Source: a virus
Reading direction: 5' to 3' (one strand)
Virus genome (UHGV): UHGV-1341054
DNA: 25,777 nt
Shown here: piece by piece, positions 3,175-8,063 of the stretch
Layout of the letters: each line of letters begins with the position of its first letter
Numbering within the stretch: the stretch's first letter is position 1
The notes under the pieces: model-generated
The model's database searches: none
Seen by the model: the letters and a program-made list of their open reading frames with translations, nothing else
Told to the model about the DNA's origin: nothing
Translations under genes and position numbers: made by a program

Positions 3175-3746
3175 AATGCCTCCCAGTCAGTTGCCATAAT
3201 GTCTACGCTGCTGGCAAACCAGTCAGAACGTGCTTGCAAAGCACCATCCATCATTACCAGACGTGGAAGAATGGAGACTTTGACGCCCTTTTGCACGTTG
3301 AATATTCCTTCCGGAAGAAAGCTAACCATCTTGTCCTTACTTTCAATGCAGCCGGGTTCGAGTGATATGTACTGTCCTTTAGGCCAGGATTTTCGGCGTG
3401 CGTCTAATCCGTTCATTAACCAGTGGATTGCGACAGAAAAAGGAATGTTTGCTTTGGCAATGGAAAGTCCACCAGCGACAGCCTGTTTATGAAACTTGAG
3501 GAGTTTTACAGCGGCCTCGGCAAGCGCAACATAAGGTTCGGGATGGACTTCGGTAAGGCTGCATCCACGAACTGTTACTGTCACAGCATGGGAATCGCCT
3601 TTTGACGCCGTTTCGATGTTGACCCCTTTGTTTGACAGTGCGTGATACAAAGCGTCACCCATGCATGACCAGCGTTCATTGCGTCCAATGAACTCACTCA
3701 AGATGCGGTCCTGCTCTGTATACGTTGCATTAGCCAAAACAGTCAT
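3171..3746 (-). CDS. Hypothetical protein, 191 aa
   Basis: ATG at 3746 preceded by a strong SD (AGGAGAGG, 4 nt spacer); contiguous with and coupled to the downstream gene. Confidence 0.65.
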   Translation of the reverse strand: MTVLANATYTEQDRILSEFIGRNERWSCMGDALYHALSNKGVNIETASKGDSHAVTVTVRGCSLTEVHPEPYVALAEAAVKLLKFHKQAVAGGLSIAKANIPFSVAIHWLMNGLDARRKSWPKGQYISLEPGCIESKDKMVSFLPEGIFNVQKGVKVSILPRLVMMDGALQARSDWFASSVDIMATDWEAF

Positions 3747-3984
3747 AACCTCTCCTTTCCTACAGACGTAACTATTCCCCGGATACCCGGTAGTGTGTGT
3801 CTTGTTTCGTATTAGTATGAGATACAGCCTTAGCGACTATATGATGGGTTGAGATAGGGTTGTGGCGGTGGTGCCTCCACCTGCCAGGACAGCCACCCCT
3901 GGCGACGACACTTACCAGAACGATTTTGTTTATACAAAAAAGTTGAAGAAAATGGCTTCGTCACGTGCGCATAGCCGCAATTAC

Positions 3985-4095
3985 CACAACGGTAAGGATG
4001 TTCATTGCATCGACCGTCAAGGGCTGCTTTTCGATGATGACTCTACTTCGCAAGCGATAATGACGCGCTAATCAAACACCCTTACCTGTTATGTG
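3985..4095. repeat. Conserved-arm hairpin E1 (CACAACGGTAAGG ... CCTTACCTGTTATGTG)
   Basis: Left arm 3985-3997, right arm 4079-4095. Arms are reverse complements apart from one extra T in the right arm; about 81-nt loop. Confidence 0.4.
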
Positions 4096-4275
4096 CCGTG
4101 CTCTTCCGGCTGTCACACCGAATCGCCAGGATGGTGAGTCCTCGGTCCGACGATATGAACGGGGCTTGCACATTCCGGCTACCTGATGTGCCCATACAGT
4201 GTTAGTAAAAGGTACCTAACAGCTACACCAGACCGCTATCGACGCATGTGCCATACGCCGTGTTACAACCAAATA

Positions 4276-4351
4276 TGGTGGCCCCTACCGGACTTGAACC
4301 GATGACCGTGCGATTATGAGTCGCCAGCTCTAACCACTGAGCTAAGGGGCC
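4276..4351 (-). tRNA. tRNA with anticodon CAU, most like tRNA-Ile2 (lysidine type); Met not excluded
   Basis: Minus-strand 76 nt GGCCCCTTAGCTCAGTGGTTAGAGCTGGCGACTCATAATCGCACGGTCATCGGTTCAAGTCCGGTAGGGGCCACCA. 7-bp acceptor stem, D and T arms, anticodon loop CTCATAA, encoded CCA. Closely resembles E. coli ileX as recalled from memory. Confidence 0.85.
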
Positions 4352-4357
4352 GGATTA

Positions 4358-4462
4358 CTATTTACTAAGTGCTTCAATGGCGCTAACAATGCCGCCTACA
4401 ACTATGGCAACAATAATAATGAGAACAATTGGATACTTGTCAGCAAAATCCCAGAATCCCAT
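4358..4462 (-). CDS. Small hydrophobic peptide, 34 aa (MGFWDFADKYPIVLIIIVAIVVGGIVSAIEALSK)
   Basis: ATG at 4462..4460 preceded by SD GAAGGA (6 nt spacer). One predicted TM helix. Stop TAG at 4358-4360 lies 6 nt before the tRNA-Ile 5' end. Start overlaps the stop of the upstream small ORF (TGATG). Not in the ORF track (under 60 aa). Confidence 0.4.
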   Translation of the reverse strand: MGFWDFADKYPIVLIIIVAIVVGGIVSAIEALSK

Positions 4463-4665
4463 CACTGATCCTTCGAAGCTATTTTAAATATCGGCCATAC
4501 CAATGTTACGGCTACTGCCACCAACGCCCCGTCCGATAAAACCGACAGGATTGTGCTGGTGAAATCCACCAGCACGGACAGCTTGAGCACCATGCTCCCT
4601 ACTCTCCAATTGTTGTGGTTACCGGTACTGATCTCCGGCTTAGCGACCCCGGCTACTGACTGCAT
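4462..4665 (-). CDS. Small membrane protein, 67 aa from ATG 4665, or 43 aa from internal ATG 4593
   Basis: Hydrophobic C-terminal half (ALVAVAVTLVWPIF). Internal ATG at 4593 has SD GGAGAG; the 4665 start has a weak RBS. Coupled to the downstream 34-aa ORF. Confidence 0.3.
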   Translation of the reverse strand: MQSVAGVAKPEISTGNHNNWRVGSMVLKLSVLVDFTSTILSVLSDGALVAVAVTLVWPIFKIASKDQ

Positions 4666-4733
4666 TGCAGTGTGTGAACTCGCCTCGTGTGTCGCTGGGG
4701 CATTTCTTTCCGCGCATCAGTCTGCGCATCAAC

Positions 4734-4809
4734 CACAACGGAAAGAGCATTGGCTAACCAGGCTCGCCGACTCTTCACGATTATCGGCTCAATGCTCTTA
4801 CCTGTTGTG
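4734..4809. repeat. Conserved-arm hairpin E2 (CACAACGGAAAGAGCATTG ... CAATGCTCTTACCTGTTGTG)
   Basis: Left arm 4734-4752, right arm 4790-4809, about 19 bp with mismatches and one extra T in the right arm. The 37-nt loop holds an inner hairpin GCCGA...TCGGC. Confidence 0.4.
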
Positions 4810-4987
4810 CGCTCCGTTTCGTGGAGCTAACGGCGGGTGATCGGGCCGCACCAGACTGGACTTATTTCAGCGTTATGCTCATGCCAGAGAATCAAACTGT
4901 GATGGTCGGTGCTGAACTCCGACACAGGGTTGTAGCAAGCCCCGCAAAGCGCGCACTACTGTAGTTGCGGCACATCAGCCTGTGCAT

Positions 4988-5088
4988 TCACCACAATGTT
5001 GAGAACACTGGTTGTCACGCTGCAACGCAACATTTATTCGTAAATTGGGATATGACCCCGTTACGACAGTGTTCTCAACGTTGTAGTG
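4988..5088. repeat. Long hairpin E3, 14-bp perfect core stem with CACAA/TTGTG-type base
   Basis: TGTTGAGAACACTG (4997-5010) pairs with CAGTGTTCTCAACG (5067-5080); the flanking CACCACAA and TTGTAGTG extend the stem imperfectly; 56-nt loop. Confidence 0.35.
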
Positions 5089-5224
5089 CCGGTTACGGTT
5101 CCGGCCAGGTCTCTTCCTCAACGGGGTGTTCTCCATACGGGCTACCGTTTATTGGTCGTTCCTGCGGTTTATGTTGTGAAGCCAGATGCTTATCTTCTGG
5201 TTGCTTCTAAGAGCTGCACTTCAT

Positions 5225-5311
5225 CACAACGGTAAGGGTACTTCGTAGGGATTCGAACCCTCTGCCAAGCACGGCGATCTCCGACGTCGCAAAATACCCT
5301 TACCTGTTGTG
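5225..5311 (-). ncRNA. tRNA-like fragment (T-arm mimic) enclosed by conserved-arm hairpin E4, directly 3' of tRNA-Thr
   Basis: Arms CACAACGGTAAGGGTA (5225-5240) and TACCCTTACCTGTTGTG (5295-5311). Interior contains GGGTTCGAATCCC (T-stem-loop with TTCGAAT) but no matching D or anticodon arms and no CCA. Right arm ends 1 nt from the tRNA-Thr 3' end. Confidence 0.35.
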
Positions 5312-5312
5312 T

Positions 5313-5388
5313 TGGGGCCGATTAACGGACTCGAACCGCTGACATCCTGCTTACAAGGCAGGCGCTCTACCAACTGAGCTAAATCGGC
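5313..5388 (-). tRNA. tRNA-Thr (anticodon UGU)
   Basis: Minus-strand 76 nt GCCGATTTAGCTCAGTTGGTAGAGCGCCTGCCTTGTAAGCAGGATGTCAGCGGTTCGAGTCCGTTAATCGGCCCCA. Canonical cloverleaf, anticodon loop CTTGTAA, encoded CCA. Confidence 0.9.
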
Positions 5389-5390
5389 AC

Positions 5391-5465
5391 TGGCGATGGT
5401 GAGTGGATTCGAACCACCGACCAGTTGGTTAACAGCCAACTGCTCTACCGCTGAGCTACACCATC
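5391..5465 (-). tRNA. tRNA-Asn (anticodon GUU)
   Basis: Minus-strand 75 nt GATGGTGTAGCTCAGCGGTAGAGCAGTTGGCTGTTAACCAACTGGTCGGTGGTTCGAATCCACTCACCATCGCCA. Canonical cloverleaf, anticodon loop CTGTTAA, encoded CCA. Lies 2 nt upstream of tRNA-Thr. Confidence 0.9.
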
Positions 5466-5662
5466 AATTACCGGGTACGTCTCCGGCAAGGGCTTCCACC
5501 TTCGTATGCTTTTCGGCGCACCGCGCCCTGGCTGCAATTCGGTAACAGGGAGTGCATGACCCTGGCTTCCGGCGTAGTTAGCGCCTTCCGCATGACGGGA
5601 TATACCCGCTTAGGTTTGGAACTGTCCAAATGCTGTTAAGCACCGGCTGCTGCGCGAGTTGC

Positions 5663-5745
5663 CACAACAGATAAGGACGCTGCCAAGAAAGACCTGACCC
5701 TTCTCATTCATCTGGTTAATCACACCAGCGCCCTTACCTGTTATG
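5663..5745. repeat. Conserved-arm hairpin E5 (CACAACAGATAAGGACGC ... GCGCCCTTACCTGTTATG)
   Basis: Left arm 5663-5680, right arm 5728-5745, 15 of 18 complementary; lies upstream (in minus sense) of the tRNA-Asn/Thr pair. Confidence 0.4.
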
Positions 5746-5926
5746 ACTCCCCGTTCTTTAATACACAGACGGGAAAACTCTGCGGTCGATTTCTTGACGG
5801 GGGGCGACTCATACCCCGTGGCGTCAGGCTTCTTAGGCCGCTACCATCATCAGATCATCGTTTGCATTTACTTTAATGGTCGGTTTCTAAACCGCCGCAA
5901 AGTCGCTAACCATGACGAAAACACTG

Positions 5927-5951
5927 AAAAAAAGCCCACCCGGAGATGGGC
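5927..5951 (-). terminator. Candidate rho-independent terminator (minus strand)
   Basis: In minus sense: GCCCA-TCTCCGGG-TGGGC followed by TTTTTTT (A-run 5927-5933 on the plus strand). Confidence 0.45.
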
Positions 5952-5970
5952 AAATACGCTACATCTCACA

Positions 5971-6049
5971 CAAGAAAGAAGCCGACTGCCTGAGCTGGAT
6001 CCACTTTCAAATGCCCGCAGAAAGGGATCACAAGTCGGCTTCTTTCTTG
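5971..6049 (-). ncRNA. Large hairpin (17-bp perfect stem plus inner inverted repeat), candidate structured sRNA ending at the 5927-5951 terminator
   Basis: CAAGAAAGAAGCCGACT (5971-5987) pairs perfectly with AGTCGGCTTCTTTCTTG (6033-6049). Inner arms GATCCACTTTC and GAAAGGGATC. The overlapping ORFs on both strands look spurious. Confidence 0.3.
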
Positions 6050-6265
6050 ATGCGGCACTCTCTCCGCCCGTCACCGCTCTGTCTCGGTTGTCGCGTTTGC
6101 CACGCCAGCCGTAACGAGGTTTAAAGTCTTTGCACGTTTCCATCACTCGACTGCCGTCTGTGGCTGTTCGTTGCGGCGGGGGTGCCTCCCCCTGGGGATA
6201 TCCCCGGCCTTACCCCATTCTTTCAAGACACAATGCAAGGCCACATCCGCATAGGTGCATTACCG

Positions 6266-6331
6266 CAACATTAAGGAGACTCAGGGCAAAAGATACTCGC
6301 CACAAAAAATCCCTATGCCTCCTTAATGTTG
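6266..6331. repeat. Hairpin with 13-bp perfect stem (CAACATTAAGGAG ... CTCCTTAATGTTG)
   Basis: Perfect reverse-complement arms at 6266-6278 and 6319-6331 with a 40-nt loop; no adjacent T-run. Confidence 0.35.
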
Positions 6332-6552
6332 AGGATGTGCATTGATGATGACCCGAAGCAGCCTGGCCCACTAAGCACGTTTCTCTGCCAGATCATCATC
6401 ACTGCACGCCCTGAATGCATTGCCATCCGTGGCGTTGAGGTCGCTTGTTGTTTACTCCGCAAAATGCACTTTTGGAGAACACTTTATGGAGCATCATCAG
6501 TTCCTGCTGACCTGTTCTTGCCATTTGCACGGGCGCCTGGCTTACGCATTAT

Positions 6553-6579
6553 ATTTCTAACATTTTCATTTGTTAGAAG
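6553..6579. promoter_or_regulatory. Inverted pair of the recurring motif (ATTTCTAACA ... TGTTAGAAG)
   Basis: TTCTAACA and TGTTAGAA form an 8-bp inverted repeat with an 8-bp spacer. In minus sense the sequence reads ATGTTAGAAATATAATG, which contains a TATAAT -10-like hexamer. Confidence 0.35.
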
Positions 6580-6714
6580 TGCTGGTGGGTTAAGATTTGG
6601 CGAAAAAGAGTGACGCTCTACCTGCTGCAAGCCGTGTTGAGATATCACCCCACCAGCACGAAAAATTTTAGGACAACCACACAAAACAATCAATGTGTTA
6701 TTTTGTTCAACTCA

Positions 6715-6726
6715 AATTTCTAACAC
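6715..6726. promoter_or_regulatory. Recurring motif copy AATTTCTAACAC
   Basis: Exact copy of the 12-mer also found at 9140-9151; lies just downstream of the 6743 gene stop at the head of the noncoding region. Confidence 0.3.
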
Positions 6727-6742
6727 ATTAATTTAATGCCAA

Positions 6743-8063
6743 TCATCTCCCGTACAAATCTTCAACACCGCCGTTCTTTTTATCCCACTCATTCGCCCAT
6801 ACCCGACAGGAATCAATGATTTCCTGTCGGCAGTCGCCCTGCATGAATGGCAACTCGTCATGAAAGTTGCTTGGGATGCAGGCCACACTGAAAACAGTAT
6901 CAAATCCGGCGTCCTTGATGCCTTCCATCGTCTCAGGGCGCATTTTTAACTCGTCAACCGGGGCATCTTTGGCATCCATAATGCGTCGATGCAAGCGAGG
7001 ATAATCCTCTTCAAGGTACGCCATAATCTTATTGTGAAGGCATTCGTCGATGTCGTTGTTCCAGTCTTTGGCAAACTCAGGCATTCGGTAATAAAGTGGC
7101 GTTCCCCAAACTGACGGGATCACATCCATTGTCAGCAAACGGTTTGTTCTAATTTGCAGGTGATAGTTAGCAGTAAGTAATGATTCTCCCCGCTGTCCGG
7201 TTTCCATCTCAAGAAAGTCGTTTTTTTCCGCATGAATAAAATCTGNNNNNNNNNNGGCCATGTGGGTATTCGTGAATATAAGCAACCGCATCCCTGCCAT
7301 CGTACATGAGCGGGAAAGATTCCGGGCGTTCTGGCATACCGCAGGCGCGATTCAGATCATACCCAAGCTGAGAACATTCACTCTTTAACTTCTCGATGAT
7401 AGCCTGAGCAGAAGCAAGTTTCTTACGCAGGCTTACGTTCTCGCCCTGGTATTTAATGCTCACTTTGTTCAGTTCGGATACACGCTCTTTAAGTTCGCGG
7501 CGTTCTCTTTTAAGGGAACGGTTATCTCTCTCGCTGTCATCCAGGCGTTTTGCCAGGCTGGACGGGAAGTCTTTCTTATAGCGCCGTAAATCTGACTCTG
7601 CCGCTGCGCGTAGCGTGTTGGCCTGCTGGAGACTGGCTTCAAGTGTACCGATCTCTCTTTTATGCTGTTCTGCATACTCAGTAATGATTTCACCCAGCGT
7701 CTCCGCCGTGGCGCTCATACCGGTAGCATGGGAAAAACTGATCAGGCTGGCGTTAACGACACGCTGAAATTCTTCGAACTGATCAACCAGGGCGTTGTAG
7801 TCTGATGCACCCGCATCCAGTAGCTGATTGATGTCATTTACAAGGTTATCTGCTGTGGCAAGAGTGCTTTCAAAAAGGCGTTTTGACAGGTCATCTCCGG
7901 CAGTCCGCTTTTGTAACAACTGTATCTGGCTGCGGAGTGTATCGATATCCGCAGAAATGATGTCTTCNNNNNNNNNNATCAAGGACAAGGCAGAGTCAAT
8001 GGGTTGGAAAGAAGGTCAGAAATGATGTCTTCGGTGGAGGAGGTTACTGCTTGCTGACTCATG
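6743..8063 (-). CDS. Hypothetical protein, about 440 aa, N-terminal coiled-coil region; reading frame broken by two 10-N gaps
   Basis: ORF-track pieces 7209..7988 and 6743..7300 are protein-like only on opposite sides of the N run at 7246-7255, consistent with one gene and an arbitrary gap length. The likely true start is ATG at 8063 (SD AAGGA): MSQQAVTSSTEDIIS, whose EDIIS is encoded by a 16-mer duplicated either side of the N run at 7968-7977. Confidence 0.5.

Follow-up and report, generated by a model that had tools for sequence, protein, structure and literature searches.

The virus genome UHGV-1341054 carries a family of related hairpins that alternate with tRNA genes along one part of its sequence, and here we describe these hairpins, their relatives and their probable function. 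The window, by which we mean the whole 25,777-nucleotide stretch that was analysed, is a P1/D6-like phage-plasmid. By megablast, positions 3700-6400 matched P1-type plasmid prophages, with D6 the nearest, followed by P1, P7, SJ46 and RCS47. The P1 counterpart of this region lies between dmt and ban, where the annotation lists Pban with C1 operators, a "dicF-like region", tRNA-Asn, tRNA-Thr, tciA/B/C, trnI and ban; upl and plp are annotated on the opposite strand of the same stretch.

Three tRNA genes were found on the minus strand of the region: tRNA-Asn(GUU) at 5391-5465 (called by ARAGORN and scoring 73.6 bits with the Rfam tRNA model), tRNA-Thr(UGU) at 5313-5388 (called by both), and a tRNA with a CAU anticodon at 4276-4351, detected with the Rfam tRNA model, which ARAGORN labels Met and whose P1 orthologue is annotated as tRNA-Ile2. 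The genes downstream (3746-3171 and beyond; orf6, orf5 and lpa of D6) are likewise on the minus strand, and the only promoter-like sites directed into the region were those at 6576-6548 and 6693-6665, again on the minus strand. Therefore, the stretch from approximately 6600 to 3750 is a long, mostly untranslated minus-strand leader that holds the three tRNA genes and six related hairpins. About 3 kb of it shows little translation and is densely structured.

An earlier reading of the window from its letters alone, referred to below as the sequence-only reading, had placed five inverted repeats at 3985-4095, 4734-4809, 4988-5088, 5225-5311 and 5663-5745. All five were confirmed and are called el1 to el5 here; a divergent sixth member absent from that reading, el6, was located at 6256-6341. 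The right-arm motif, CCTTACCTGTTRTG, occurred five times within two mismatches, each time inside 3985-5745, compared to an expectation of 0.22 in shuffled sequence, and none of 100 shuffles reached five. A motif-anchored hairpin search of the other ~22 kb of the window recovered no further copies on either strand.

All six hairpins are read on the minus strand. The el1 hairpin (3985-4093) lies ~180 nt downstream of tRNA-Met(CAU) in the transcript and has the clamp CAUAAC-A-GGUAAGGG / CCUUACC-GUUGUG, a 20-bp stem and an apical domain of ~68 nt. The lambda-type el2 (4734-4809) has a clamp with a bulged A and a U.U mismatch, below a 37-nt apical domain. The el3 stem (4989-5088, originally reported as 4988-5088) is 21-22 bp long, with the base CACUACAAC/GUUGUGGUG and a covarying upper stem, CGUUGAGAACACUG / CAGUGUUCUCAACA; its upper arms differ from those of the other copies and its stem base is the same (ACAAC/GUUGU). 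The 21-bp stem of el4 (5225-5311) has a bulged A and begins 1 nt past the CCA of tRNA-Thr, and its apical domain contains a T-arm-like stem-loop (AGGG-UUCGAAU-CCCU). In el5 (5663-5745), ~200 nt upstream of tRNA-Asn, the stem is an unbroken 20 bp with three G-U pairs, and the A that bulges elsewhere is paired with U. The arms of el6 are CAACAUUAAGGAGG / CCUCCUUAAUGUUG, with CAACAUUAAGGAGG...CUCCUUAAUGUUG as an alternative listing.

The conserved part of the family is a clamp of ~13 bp, CAYAAC-A-GGUAAGG / CCUUACC-GUURUG. From the base upwards its pairs are C-G, A-U, C/U-G, A-U, A-U and C-G, followed by an optional A (bulged or paired with U), a G-C pair and the semi-conserved block GGUAAGG/CCUUACC. 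This block is exchanged with compensation for CGUUGAG/CUCAACG in el3 and in Cyrano, for GAUAAUCGG/CCGAUUAUC, and for GCAGGGC/GCCCUGC in locus L087. When the family was defined as the stem base CAYAAC/GUURUG followed by GGUAAGRG/CYCUUWCC, el1, el2, el4 and el5 fitted fully, and el3 and el6 shared the base and covaried above it. The extra T noted in the right arm of three copies (3985-4095, 4734-4809 and 5225-5311) is also real and corresponds to a bulged A directly after CACAAC on the minus strand. A U.U mismatch is kept in lambda-type copies and was present in 23 of 41 stems.

Above the clamp, a variable upper stem leads into an apical domain of 29-82 nt that is unrelated between copies, and at least 36 unrelated apical-domain clusters sat on the one clamp among the loci that were fetched. 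The loops had been called unrelated, and between copies this held; several also contain sub-hairpins of their own. A T-loop motif, GTTCGAnTC on a stem of 4-6 bp, was observed in the apical domains of four unrelated clusters, with ~0.03 expected by chance (window 5225-5311 and loci L008, L162, L168, L183 and L034). It lies on the 3' side in el4, adjoining an acceptor-like stem, and on the 5' side in L008, L162 and L168, as if the insert were inverted between the arms.

The hairpins are strand-specific structures at the RNA level, a conclusion in which we have high confidence. Folded as RNA, the minus strand was more stable than the plus strand in all six window copies (-31 to -47 kcal/mol, z -3.6 to -8.2), since the G-U pairs would be C-A mismatches on the other strand. 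Minus- and plus-strand energies in kcal/mol were -35.6 and -23.7 for el1 (z -3.6), -31.1 and -30.8 for el2 (z -4.8), -47.2 and -42.8 for el3 (z -8.2), -39.7 and -34.3 for el4 (z -5.3), -39.0 and -23.3 for el5 (z -6.3), and -37.3 and -30.7 for el6 (z -5.7). Among 20 family members whose sense strand was known from neighbouring tRNAs or genes, not all of them independent, the sense strand was the more stable in 17 (mean difference -6.1 kcal/mol, Wilcoxon p=1.7e-4). The bulged A lay on the sense 5' arm in 10/10 of the members of known orientation. The inverted repeats had been described with arms of 13-19 bp; the repeats stand, and as minus-strand RNA with G-U pairs the stems are longer, at 18-22 bp.

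Covariation supports the same conclusion. In an alignment of 41 distinct stems (A2, extracted using pairing as a guide and with the optional A/U position removed), 94.1% of pair cells were canonical, and changes on both sides were seen in 15 of the 19 pairs, amounting to 72 cells. None of 500 shuffles reached any of these measures, and slid registers paired at 35-60%. The covariance check proposed with the sequence-only reading thus came out in favour of base pairing.

That reading had also argued that the hairpins are not generic terminators, and indeed no U-tract follows any copy. Intrinsic terminators were rejected on the same grounds, as a scan for terminator-like sites returned only 5951-5934 on the minus strand and 4682-4701 and 6429-6444 on the plus strand, none of them at a family hairpin; the site at 6429-6444 lies 88 nt beyond el6. 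A related proposal is that the hairpins protect the leader, by blocking Rho loading or exonucleases, or serve as attenuator or antitermination signals, with no endonucleolytic cleavage. A ~3-kb leader with little translation and dense structure would suit such a role, and the lambda-type 3' arm contains UGCUCUUU, which we take to be the first 8 nt of rrn boxA. However, this boxA-like stretch is buried in the duplex and is missing from el1, el4 and el5, and the leader holds no boxA-like 13-mer within three mismatches. In lambda, the hairpin lies after tR', by which point the polymerase is already modified by Q, so that a role in antitermination is unnecessary there. Generic protection would also not conserve a specific clamp sequence, and with U-tracts lacking throughout we regard this proposal as highly improbable. 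A boxA (NusB/NusE) signal was rejected separately: no UGCUCUUUAACAA-like match within three mismatches was present in 3700-6900, and the partial match of the lambda type is base-paired.

Relatives of the window hairpins were found in well-known phages. Over its full length, el2 is identical to lambda 44787-44862 at 74 of 76 nt (97%), which overturns the earlier statement that no described element matches; the RNase III sites of T7 are a further comparable system. The lambda copy begins 7 nt past the U-tract of tR', the terminator of 6S RNA, between Q and S, and is the longest imperfect duplex in the ~600-nt late leader. Neither GenBank J02459 nor NC_001416 has a feature annotated at this site. 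The two leaders are alike in that each belongs to the untranslated part of a long polycistronic phage operon, and el2 has the same clamp, bulged A and U.U mismatch as its lambda counterpart; they differ in that lambda has a single copy and no tRNA genes, whereas the window has six copies among three tRNAs.

P1 has four members, namely orthologues of el3, el4 and el5 and a copy at the el2 position, where clamp and flanks are those of the window and solely the apical domain differs. D6, P7, SJ46, Ro157 and 813R1 carry two to five copies each, and in P1, P7, SJ46, Ro157 and 813R1 the copies sit in the dmt-to-ban leader. The el3 hairpin is conserved in P1, D6, P7, Ro157 and 813R1, el5 has orthologues in P1, D6, P7 and SJ46, and el6 has a D6 counterpart. 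At the el1 position D6 has the same clamp with a loop of merely 7 nt. Flanking sequence recurs as well: GUGAAUGCGCAGGC, found 3' of el2, appears again behind many family members. The conserved 3' flank of el2 includes a small hairpin read from the sequence (GCGCA-GACUGA-UGCGC, 4712-4727, minus strand), and the same hairpin recurs on the minus strand behind el3, at 4970-4985, where it reads GCACA-GGCUGA-UGUGC and so differs from 4712-4727 by a compensatory change.

Beyond the P1-like phages, lambdoid prophages of Klebsiella carry an el2-like copy in the interval from Q to the lysis genes, where it follows tRNA genes at a distance of ~85-100 nt. A two-arm pattern scan with 12+9 nt of the arms fixed, run on one genome per species, returned lambda-type copies in ~25 Enterobacterales genera, including Serratia, Klebsiella, Pectobacterium, Pantoea, Rahnella, Kluyvera, Citrobacter, Erwinia, Enterobacter, Brenneria and Kosakonia. 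Each of these copies had a different apical domain and many lay directly after a U-tract. The open reading frame (ORF) directly upstream encoded a Q-type antiterminator in 8/8 cases tested, representing three different Q families, and the one downstream ORF tested was a holin. The Q-to-holin region thus hosts copies in lambda, in the Klebsiella prophages and in other Enterobacterales.

An unbiased sample was provided by contigs picked solely for a lambda-identical Q. Behind the identical tR', these carried the same clamp with the lambda apical domain, with a domain we call "type C", or with others; their 3' flanks were the same or different, and some contigs had tRNA genes in place of the hairpin. 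The "type C" domain is nearly unchanged between its two settings, behind tR' in the lambda-Q phages and behind tRNA-Thr in P7 and Ro157. No family member was found between Q and S in the Stx2 phage 933W; therefore the family is neither universal in lambdoid phages nor tied to all phage tRNA clusters. The pattern scan also picked up the exact 76-nt lambda hairpin in 21 assemblies from unrelated taxa (loci including L136, L137, L145, L147, L150 and L154), among them Pseudomonas, Bradyrhizobium, Kitasatospora, Oceanobacillus and Algoriphagus. Several of these copies were on short or low-coverage contigs and some on contigs of ~48.5 kb, and all 21 look like lambda DNA contamination.

The elements are therefore copies of an uncatalogued RNA hairpin family that is widespread in temperate enterobacterial phages and includes the lambda late-leader hairpin. 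In Rfam only tRNA was matched at the gathering threshold; permissive sub-threshold matches over the hairpins were noise from microRNA (miRNA) models. In the literature, full-text and identifier searches turned up neither the hairpin nor its sequence. Few phages have been studied as thoroughly as P1 and lambda; even so, the family is annotated in neither of them, nor in Rfam. As far as we found, the multi-copy array interleaved with tRNAs in P1-like phages is new, as are the clamp with exchangeable apical domains and the coincidence of the clamp with mosaic joints.

The placement of the copies bears on their function. Those of the window stand between the tRNAs, small ORFs and leader segments of a polycistronic RNA. 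A member begins 1-2 nt past the CCA of tRNA-Thr or tRNA-Ser in four different combinations of tRNA and hairpin: beside el4 itself, the type C hairpin takes the post-tRNA-Thr position in P7 and Ro157, yet another member does so in contig L008, and in D6 and Cyrano a member follows tRNA-Ser. Association with tRNAs is frequent but not obligatory. It had been proposed to search for the arms in related phages and to ask whether they always accompany tRNA genes; the arms are indeed present there, and constant co-occurrence fails with the lambda copy.

Another possibility is that the hairpins are remnants of degenerated tRNA genes or tRNA fragments that do nothing in themselves. The el4 hairpin has T-arm-like, acceptor-like and D-arm-like stems (and no anticodon arm), the 5' flank of el3 is similar to the tRNA-Thr 3' end, and part of a tRNA-Ser gene survives at 4577-4642. 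Nevertheless, none of the six hairpins is accepted by ARAGORN or by the Rfam tRNA model: even at E<=5, the three true tRNAs are called and nothing else. Features of tRNAs are missing from most apical domains, no tRNA lies next to the lambda copy, and the conservation and covariation of the clamp far exceed those expected of a pseudogene in decay. For the family as a whole this explanation is largely refuted, and we give it scarcely any credence.

We consider it probable, with moderate confidence, that the hairpins are RNase III-type processing signals that punctuate a mixed tRNA and mRNA transcript. The classical substrate of RNase III is an RNA duplex of 18-22 bp, around two helical turns, within a polycistronic transcript. 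In the proposed scheme, the hairpins would act in cis in a polycistronic minus-strand transcript running from ~6600 to 3750 and on into the downstream genes, carrying tRNA-Asn, tRNA-Thr, small tciB/C-like ORFs and tRNA-Met(CAU). Host RNase III would cut the 18-22 bp duplexes, separating tRNA precursors from the flanking mRNA or leader segments, removing a stable hairpin that would impede the 3' trimming of tRNA-Thr, and leaving defined, structured ends. A cut in the stem is plausibly required because a stable hairpin 1 nt past the CCA would block the 3' exonucleases that act on tRNA ends. The enzyme, the cut position and the consequences for tRNA maturation are what we infer in this scheme.

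Sequence-specific recognition of the arms, the sequence-only reading's general proposal, is thus also preferred here. Of the three options it had offered, processing signals in the tRNA precursor fit best, given the strand-specific RNA structure, the covariation and the position of el4 1 nt past the CCA of tRNA-Thr.

Known systems provide several parallels. RNase III sites in the lambda late leader are reported by Daniels et al. 1988 (PMID 2849240). Release of a tRNA from the metY-nusA transcript by RNase III is reported by Regnier and Grunberg-Manago 1989. The metY-nusA-infB site and the spacer-tRNA stems of rRNA operons resemble the window hairpins in that a duplex adjoins a tRNA in a mixed transcript and cleavage frees the precursor; unlike the window family, which is multi-copy with a shared clamp and exchangeable tops, they are single, unrelated sequences of the host chromosome.

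Phage T7 offers a further parallel. Its RNase III sites (R0.3, R0.5, R1, R1.1, R1.3, R4.7, R18.5 and others) are likewise a family of repeated hairpins, in which the stem (AAGG.../...CCUUUAUGAU) is conserved and the cut lies at an asymmetric internal loop. Both families are repeated within one genome and lie between functional units of a polycistronic RNA, and both combine a conserved stem, an asymmetry and variable tops, with AAGG paired to CCUU. With regard to the base-pair pattern of the proximal, middle and distal boxes of RNase III substrates, this AAGG/CCUU element was all that the clamp was seen to have in common with the T7 sites. Past it there is no sequence homology, and the T7 hairpins have ~10-12 bp above the internal loop and loops of 4-5 nt, compared to stems of 18-22 bp and apical domains that span 29-82 nt in the window family. 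When the 3' strands were aligned on GUGnnCUU, the T7 cut fell opposite the bulged A, a weak correspondence from which one might speculate that the hairpins are possibly cut at this point. In vivo, the substrates of RNase III show a particular pattern of base pairs (PMC6212723), and this could explain some of the sequence conservation.

Several points weigh against RNase III processing. With pairing as its guide, the A2 alignment leans towards structure, and conservation within the 12+9 nt fixed in the pattern scan was imposed by the search. We infer from sequence that the lambda RNase III sites correspond to the hairpin at 44787-44862, and the parallel depends on that equation. The usual view is that sequence adds little positive information to the choice of substrate by RNase III, and the near-identity of the clamp across genera, despite replaced flanks and tops, may reflect another sequence-specific reader or homogenisation by recombination. 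Finally, the hairpin occurs in lambda, which lacks tRNA genes, so the release of tRNAs is not the sole role of the family.

A different emphasis falls on the apical domains. The clamp could be an excision cassette from which RNase III or another nuclease releases them as stable small RNAs, some tRNA-like, in which case small-RNA precursors would alternate with tRNAs along the leader and the exchangeable domains would be its functional payload. The many unrelated domain clusters on one clamp, the recurrence of the type C domain nearly unchanged in different contexts and the T-loop motif in four clusters would all agree with this, as would the dicF-like region annotated in the same leader of P1. 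RNase III-dependent biogenesis of small RNAs is documented (PMC8687705). On the other hand, the majority of apical domains occur once and show no mark of conservation, no small-RNA family of Rfam matches, and the D6 clamp with its 7-nt loop implies that the payload is dispensable. We rate this explanation as unlikely compared with RNase III-type processing signals.

The clamp also coincides with places where phage genomes differ. Homology to P1 starts at 4091 and at 4791, and homology to D6 stops at 3995, is regained at 4066 and begins anew at 4973; each of these five points is in or beside an arm. Across seven P1-like leaders, 30 of 125 alignment ends fell near arms compared to 14.5 expected, a roughly 2-fold excess that is supportive only, as the test lacks independence and cross-hits between copies account for part of the excess. 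Taken together, these breakpoints and the swaps of apical domains show that the clamp also acts as a joint for exchange. Recombination between copies over short homology would be the simplest mechanism, the clamp serving as the homology patch because it is the sole sequence common to otherwise unrelated segments. By this route, apical domains and the cassettes between hairpins would be exchanged among P1-like and lambdoid phages.

Two further observations concern such exchanges. In the D6 hairpin after tRNA-Ser (~3905-4016 of locus L002), the apical domain is the sequence immediately 3' of the lambda hairpin, 44863-44930 (L127 1064-1131). Flank and loop sequences can therefore trade places, and no simple rearrangement explains this case. 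The 933W terminator upstream of stx2 (L194 3386-3420) has TTTTTTATATCTGC in common with lambda tR' (L127 975-990), and 933W and lambda diverge exactly at the start of the lambda hairpin, which makes another mosaic joint at a hairpin edge.

Such data could also be taken to mean that the elements work at the DNA level, as recombination linkers or mobile palindromes similar to attC or to miniature inverted-repeat transposable elements (MITEs), with arms recognised as folded single strands or used in cassette exchange and the RNA structure incidental. In addition to the homology breaks at the arms, the identical Q and tR' followed by one clamp with different apical domains and 3' flanks, and the difference between P1 and the window at the el2 position, would be expected of such elements. 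The build is also attC-like: both have an imperfect palindrome with an AAC...GTT base, an extrahelical base and a variable top (a centre of 50-140 nt in integron attC), and both bound exchangeable cassettes.

The core does not fit, however. The attC consensus is RYYYAAC / GTTRRRY, from which CACAAC/GTTGTG departs at two of the four degenerate positions on each side. Orientation always follows transcription, the G-U pairs favour the sense strand, no target-site duplications were found at the ends, and compensatory changes of the RNA type keep the stems paired, which plain patches of homology would not need. Neither P1-type phages nor lambda is known to carry an integron-type integrase (IntI). 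We think it quite unlikely that the elements are primarily of this kind. The specific suggestion of folded single-strand recombination sites, made in the sequence-only reading, thus fell as a mechanism on the attC mismatch, the G-U asymmetry and the fixed orientation, yet joints and swaps do cluster at the arms. Among named candidates, attC was rejected because two of the four degenerate positions are violated in CCACAAC and likewise in GTTGTGG, and because of the strand bias; MITEs and repetitive extragenic palindromic (REP) elements were rejected as mobile palindromes for want of flanking direct repeats and because the orientation relative to transcription was the same in 10/10.

Excision and exchange could also be combined, with the clamp as a universal cassette in which RNase III would free the variable apical domains as diverse small RNAs, some tRNA-like, and recombination at the clamp would shuffle these payloads and the tRNA or moron cassettes between P1-like and lambdoid phages. 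If true, this would be a bacterial counterpart of a clustered primary miRNA array with integron-like exchange and no dedicated integrase; we hold it to be improbable.

Several consequences follow from recognition of the family. It explains the otherwise puzzling 3-kb "non-coding" tRNA region of P1-like phage-plasmids, and the preferred reading of RNase III-type processing offers a concrete, testable model for the release of phage tRNAs embedded in mRNA operons. The clamp is a short conserved sequence at which tRNAs, morons and apical domains swap between unrelated temperate phages, and the swap sites include the Q-to-lysis region, a common place of insertion for toxin genes and tRNAs.

The hairpins also cast doubt on annotated ORFs that overlap them. 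The P1 coding sequence plp (L001 3853-4230; plus strand of the window, 4965-5342) is antisense to el3, el4 and tRNA-Thr. Its frame contains an in-frame stop in both the window and Ro157, and in P7 and 813R1 swapped hairpins disrupt it. Therefore, plp is probably not a real gene, and RNA elements account for its conservation. P1 upl probably also lies antisense to these elements.

Other features were observed in the leader. At 4577-4642, on the minus strand, lies a 5' fragment of tRNA-Ser(UGA) (GGAGAGUAGGGAGCAUGGUGCUCAAGC). D6, P7 and Cyrano have the matching tRNA-Ser gene in intact form; in the window it is cut short and joined to the beginning of a tciB-like ORF, and because of this fusion the N-terminus of the 67-amino-acid ORF at 4462-4665 is spurious. 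Further upstream in the transcript, the minus-strand stretch 5934-6054, in the region that P1 annotation calls dicF-like, has a 21-bp hairpin with a perfect 17-bp core (6054-5967), followed by a terminator-like stem with U7 at 5951-5934. The Rfam DicF model gave no match at 5934-6054; the stretch may encode a small RNA that ends at this terminator-like stem, or may act as an attenuator ahead of the tRNAs.

A repeated ATTTCTAACA motif was found at 6553-6571 and 6716-6734, with inverted copies at 6565-6578 and 6718-6731. It overlaps both minus-strand promoter-like sites and may be the operator of a D6-type repressor that controls the leader. Finally, a 25-nt direct repeat (88% identical) occurs at 3859-3883 and 6170-6194; within it, a small hairpin rich in G+C (GGUGGAGGCACCACC / GGGGGAGGCACCCCC) precedes CCGCCACAAC / CCGCCGCAAC. 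Between the two copies lie el1 to el5, the three tRNAs and the dicF-like hairpin, and the divergent el6 is outside them.

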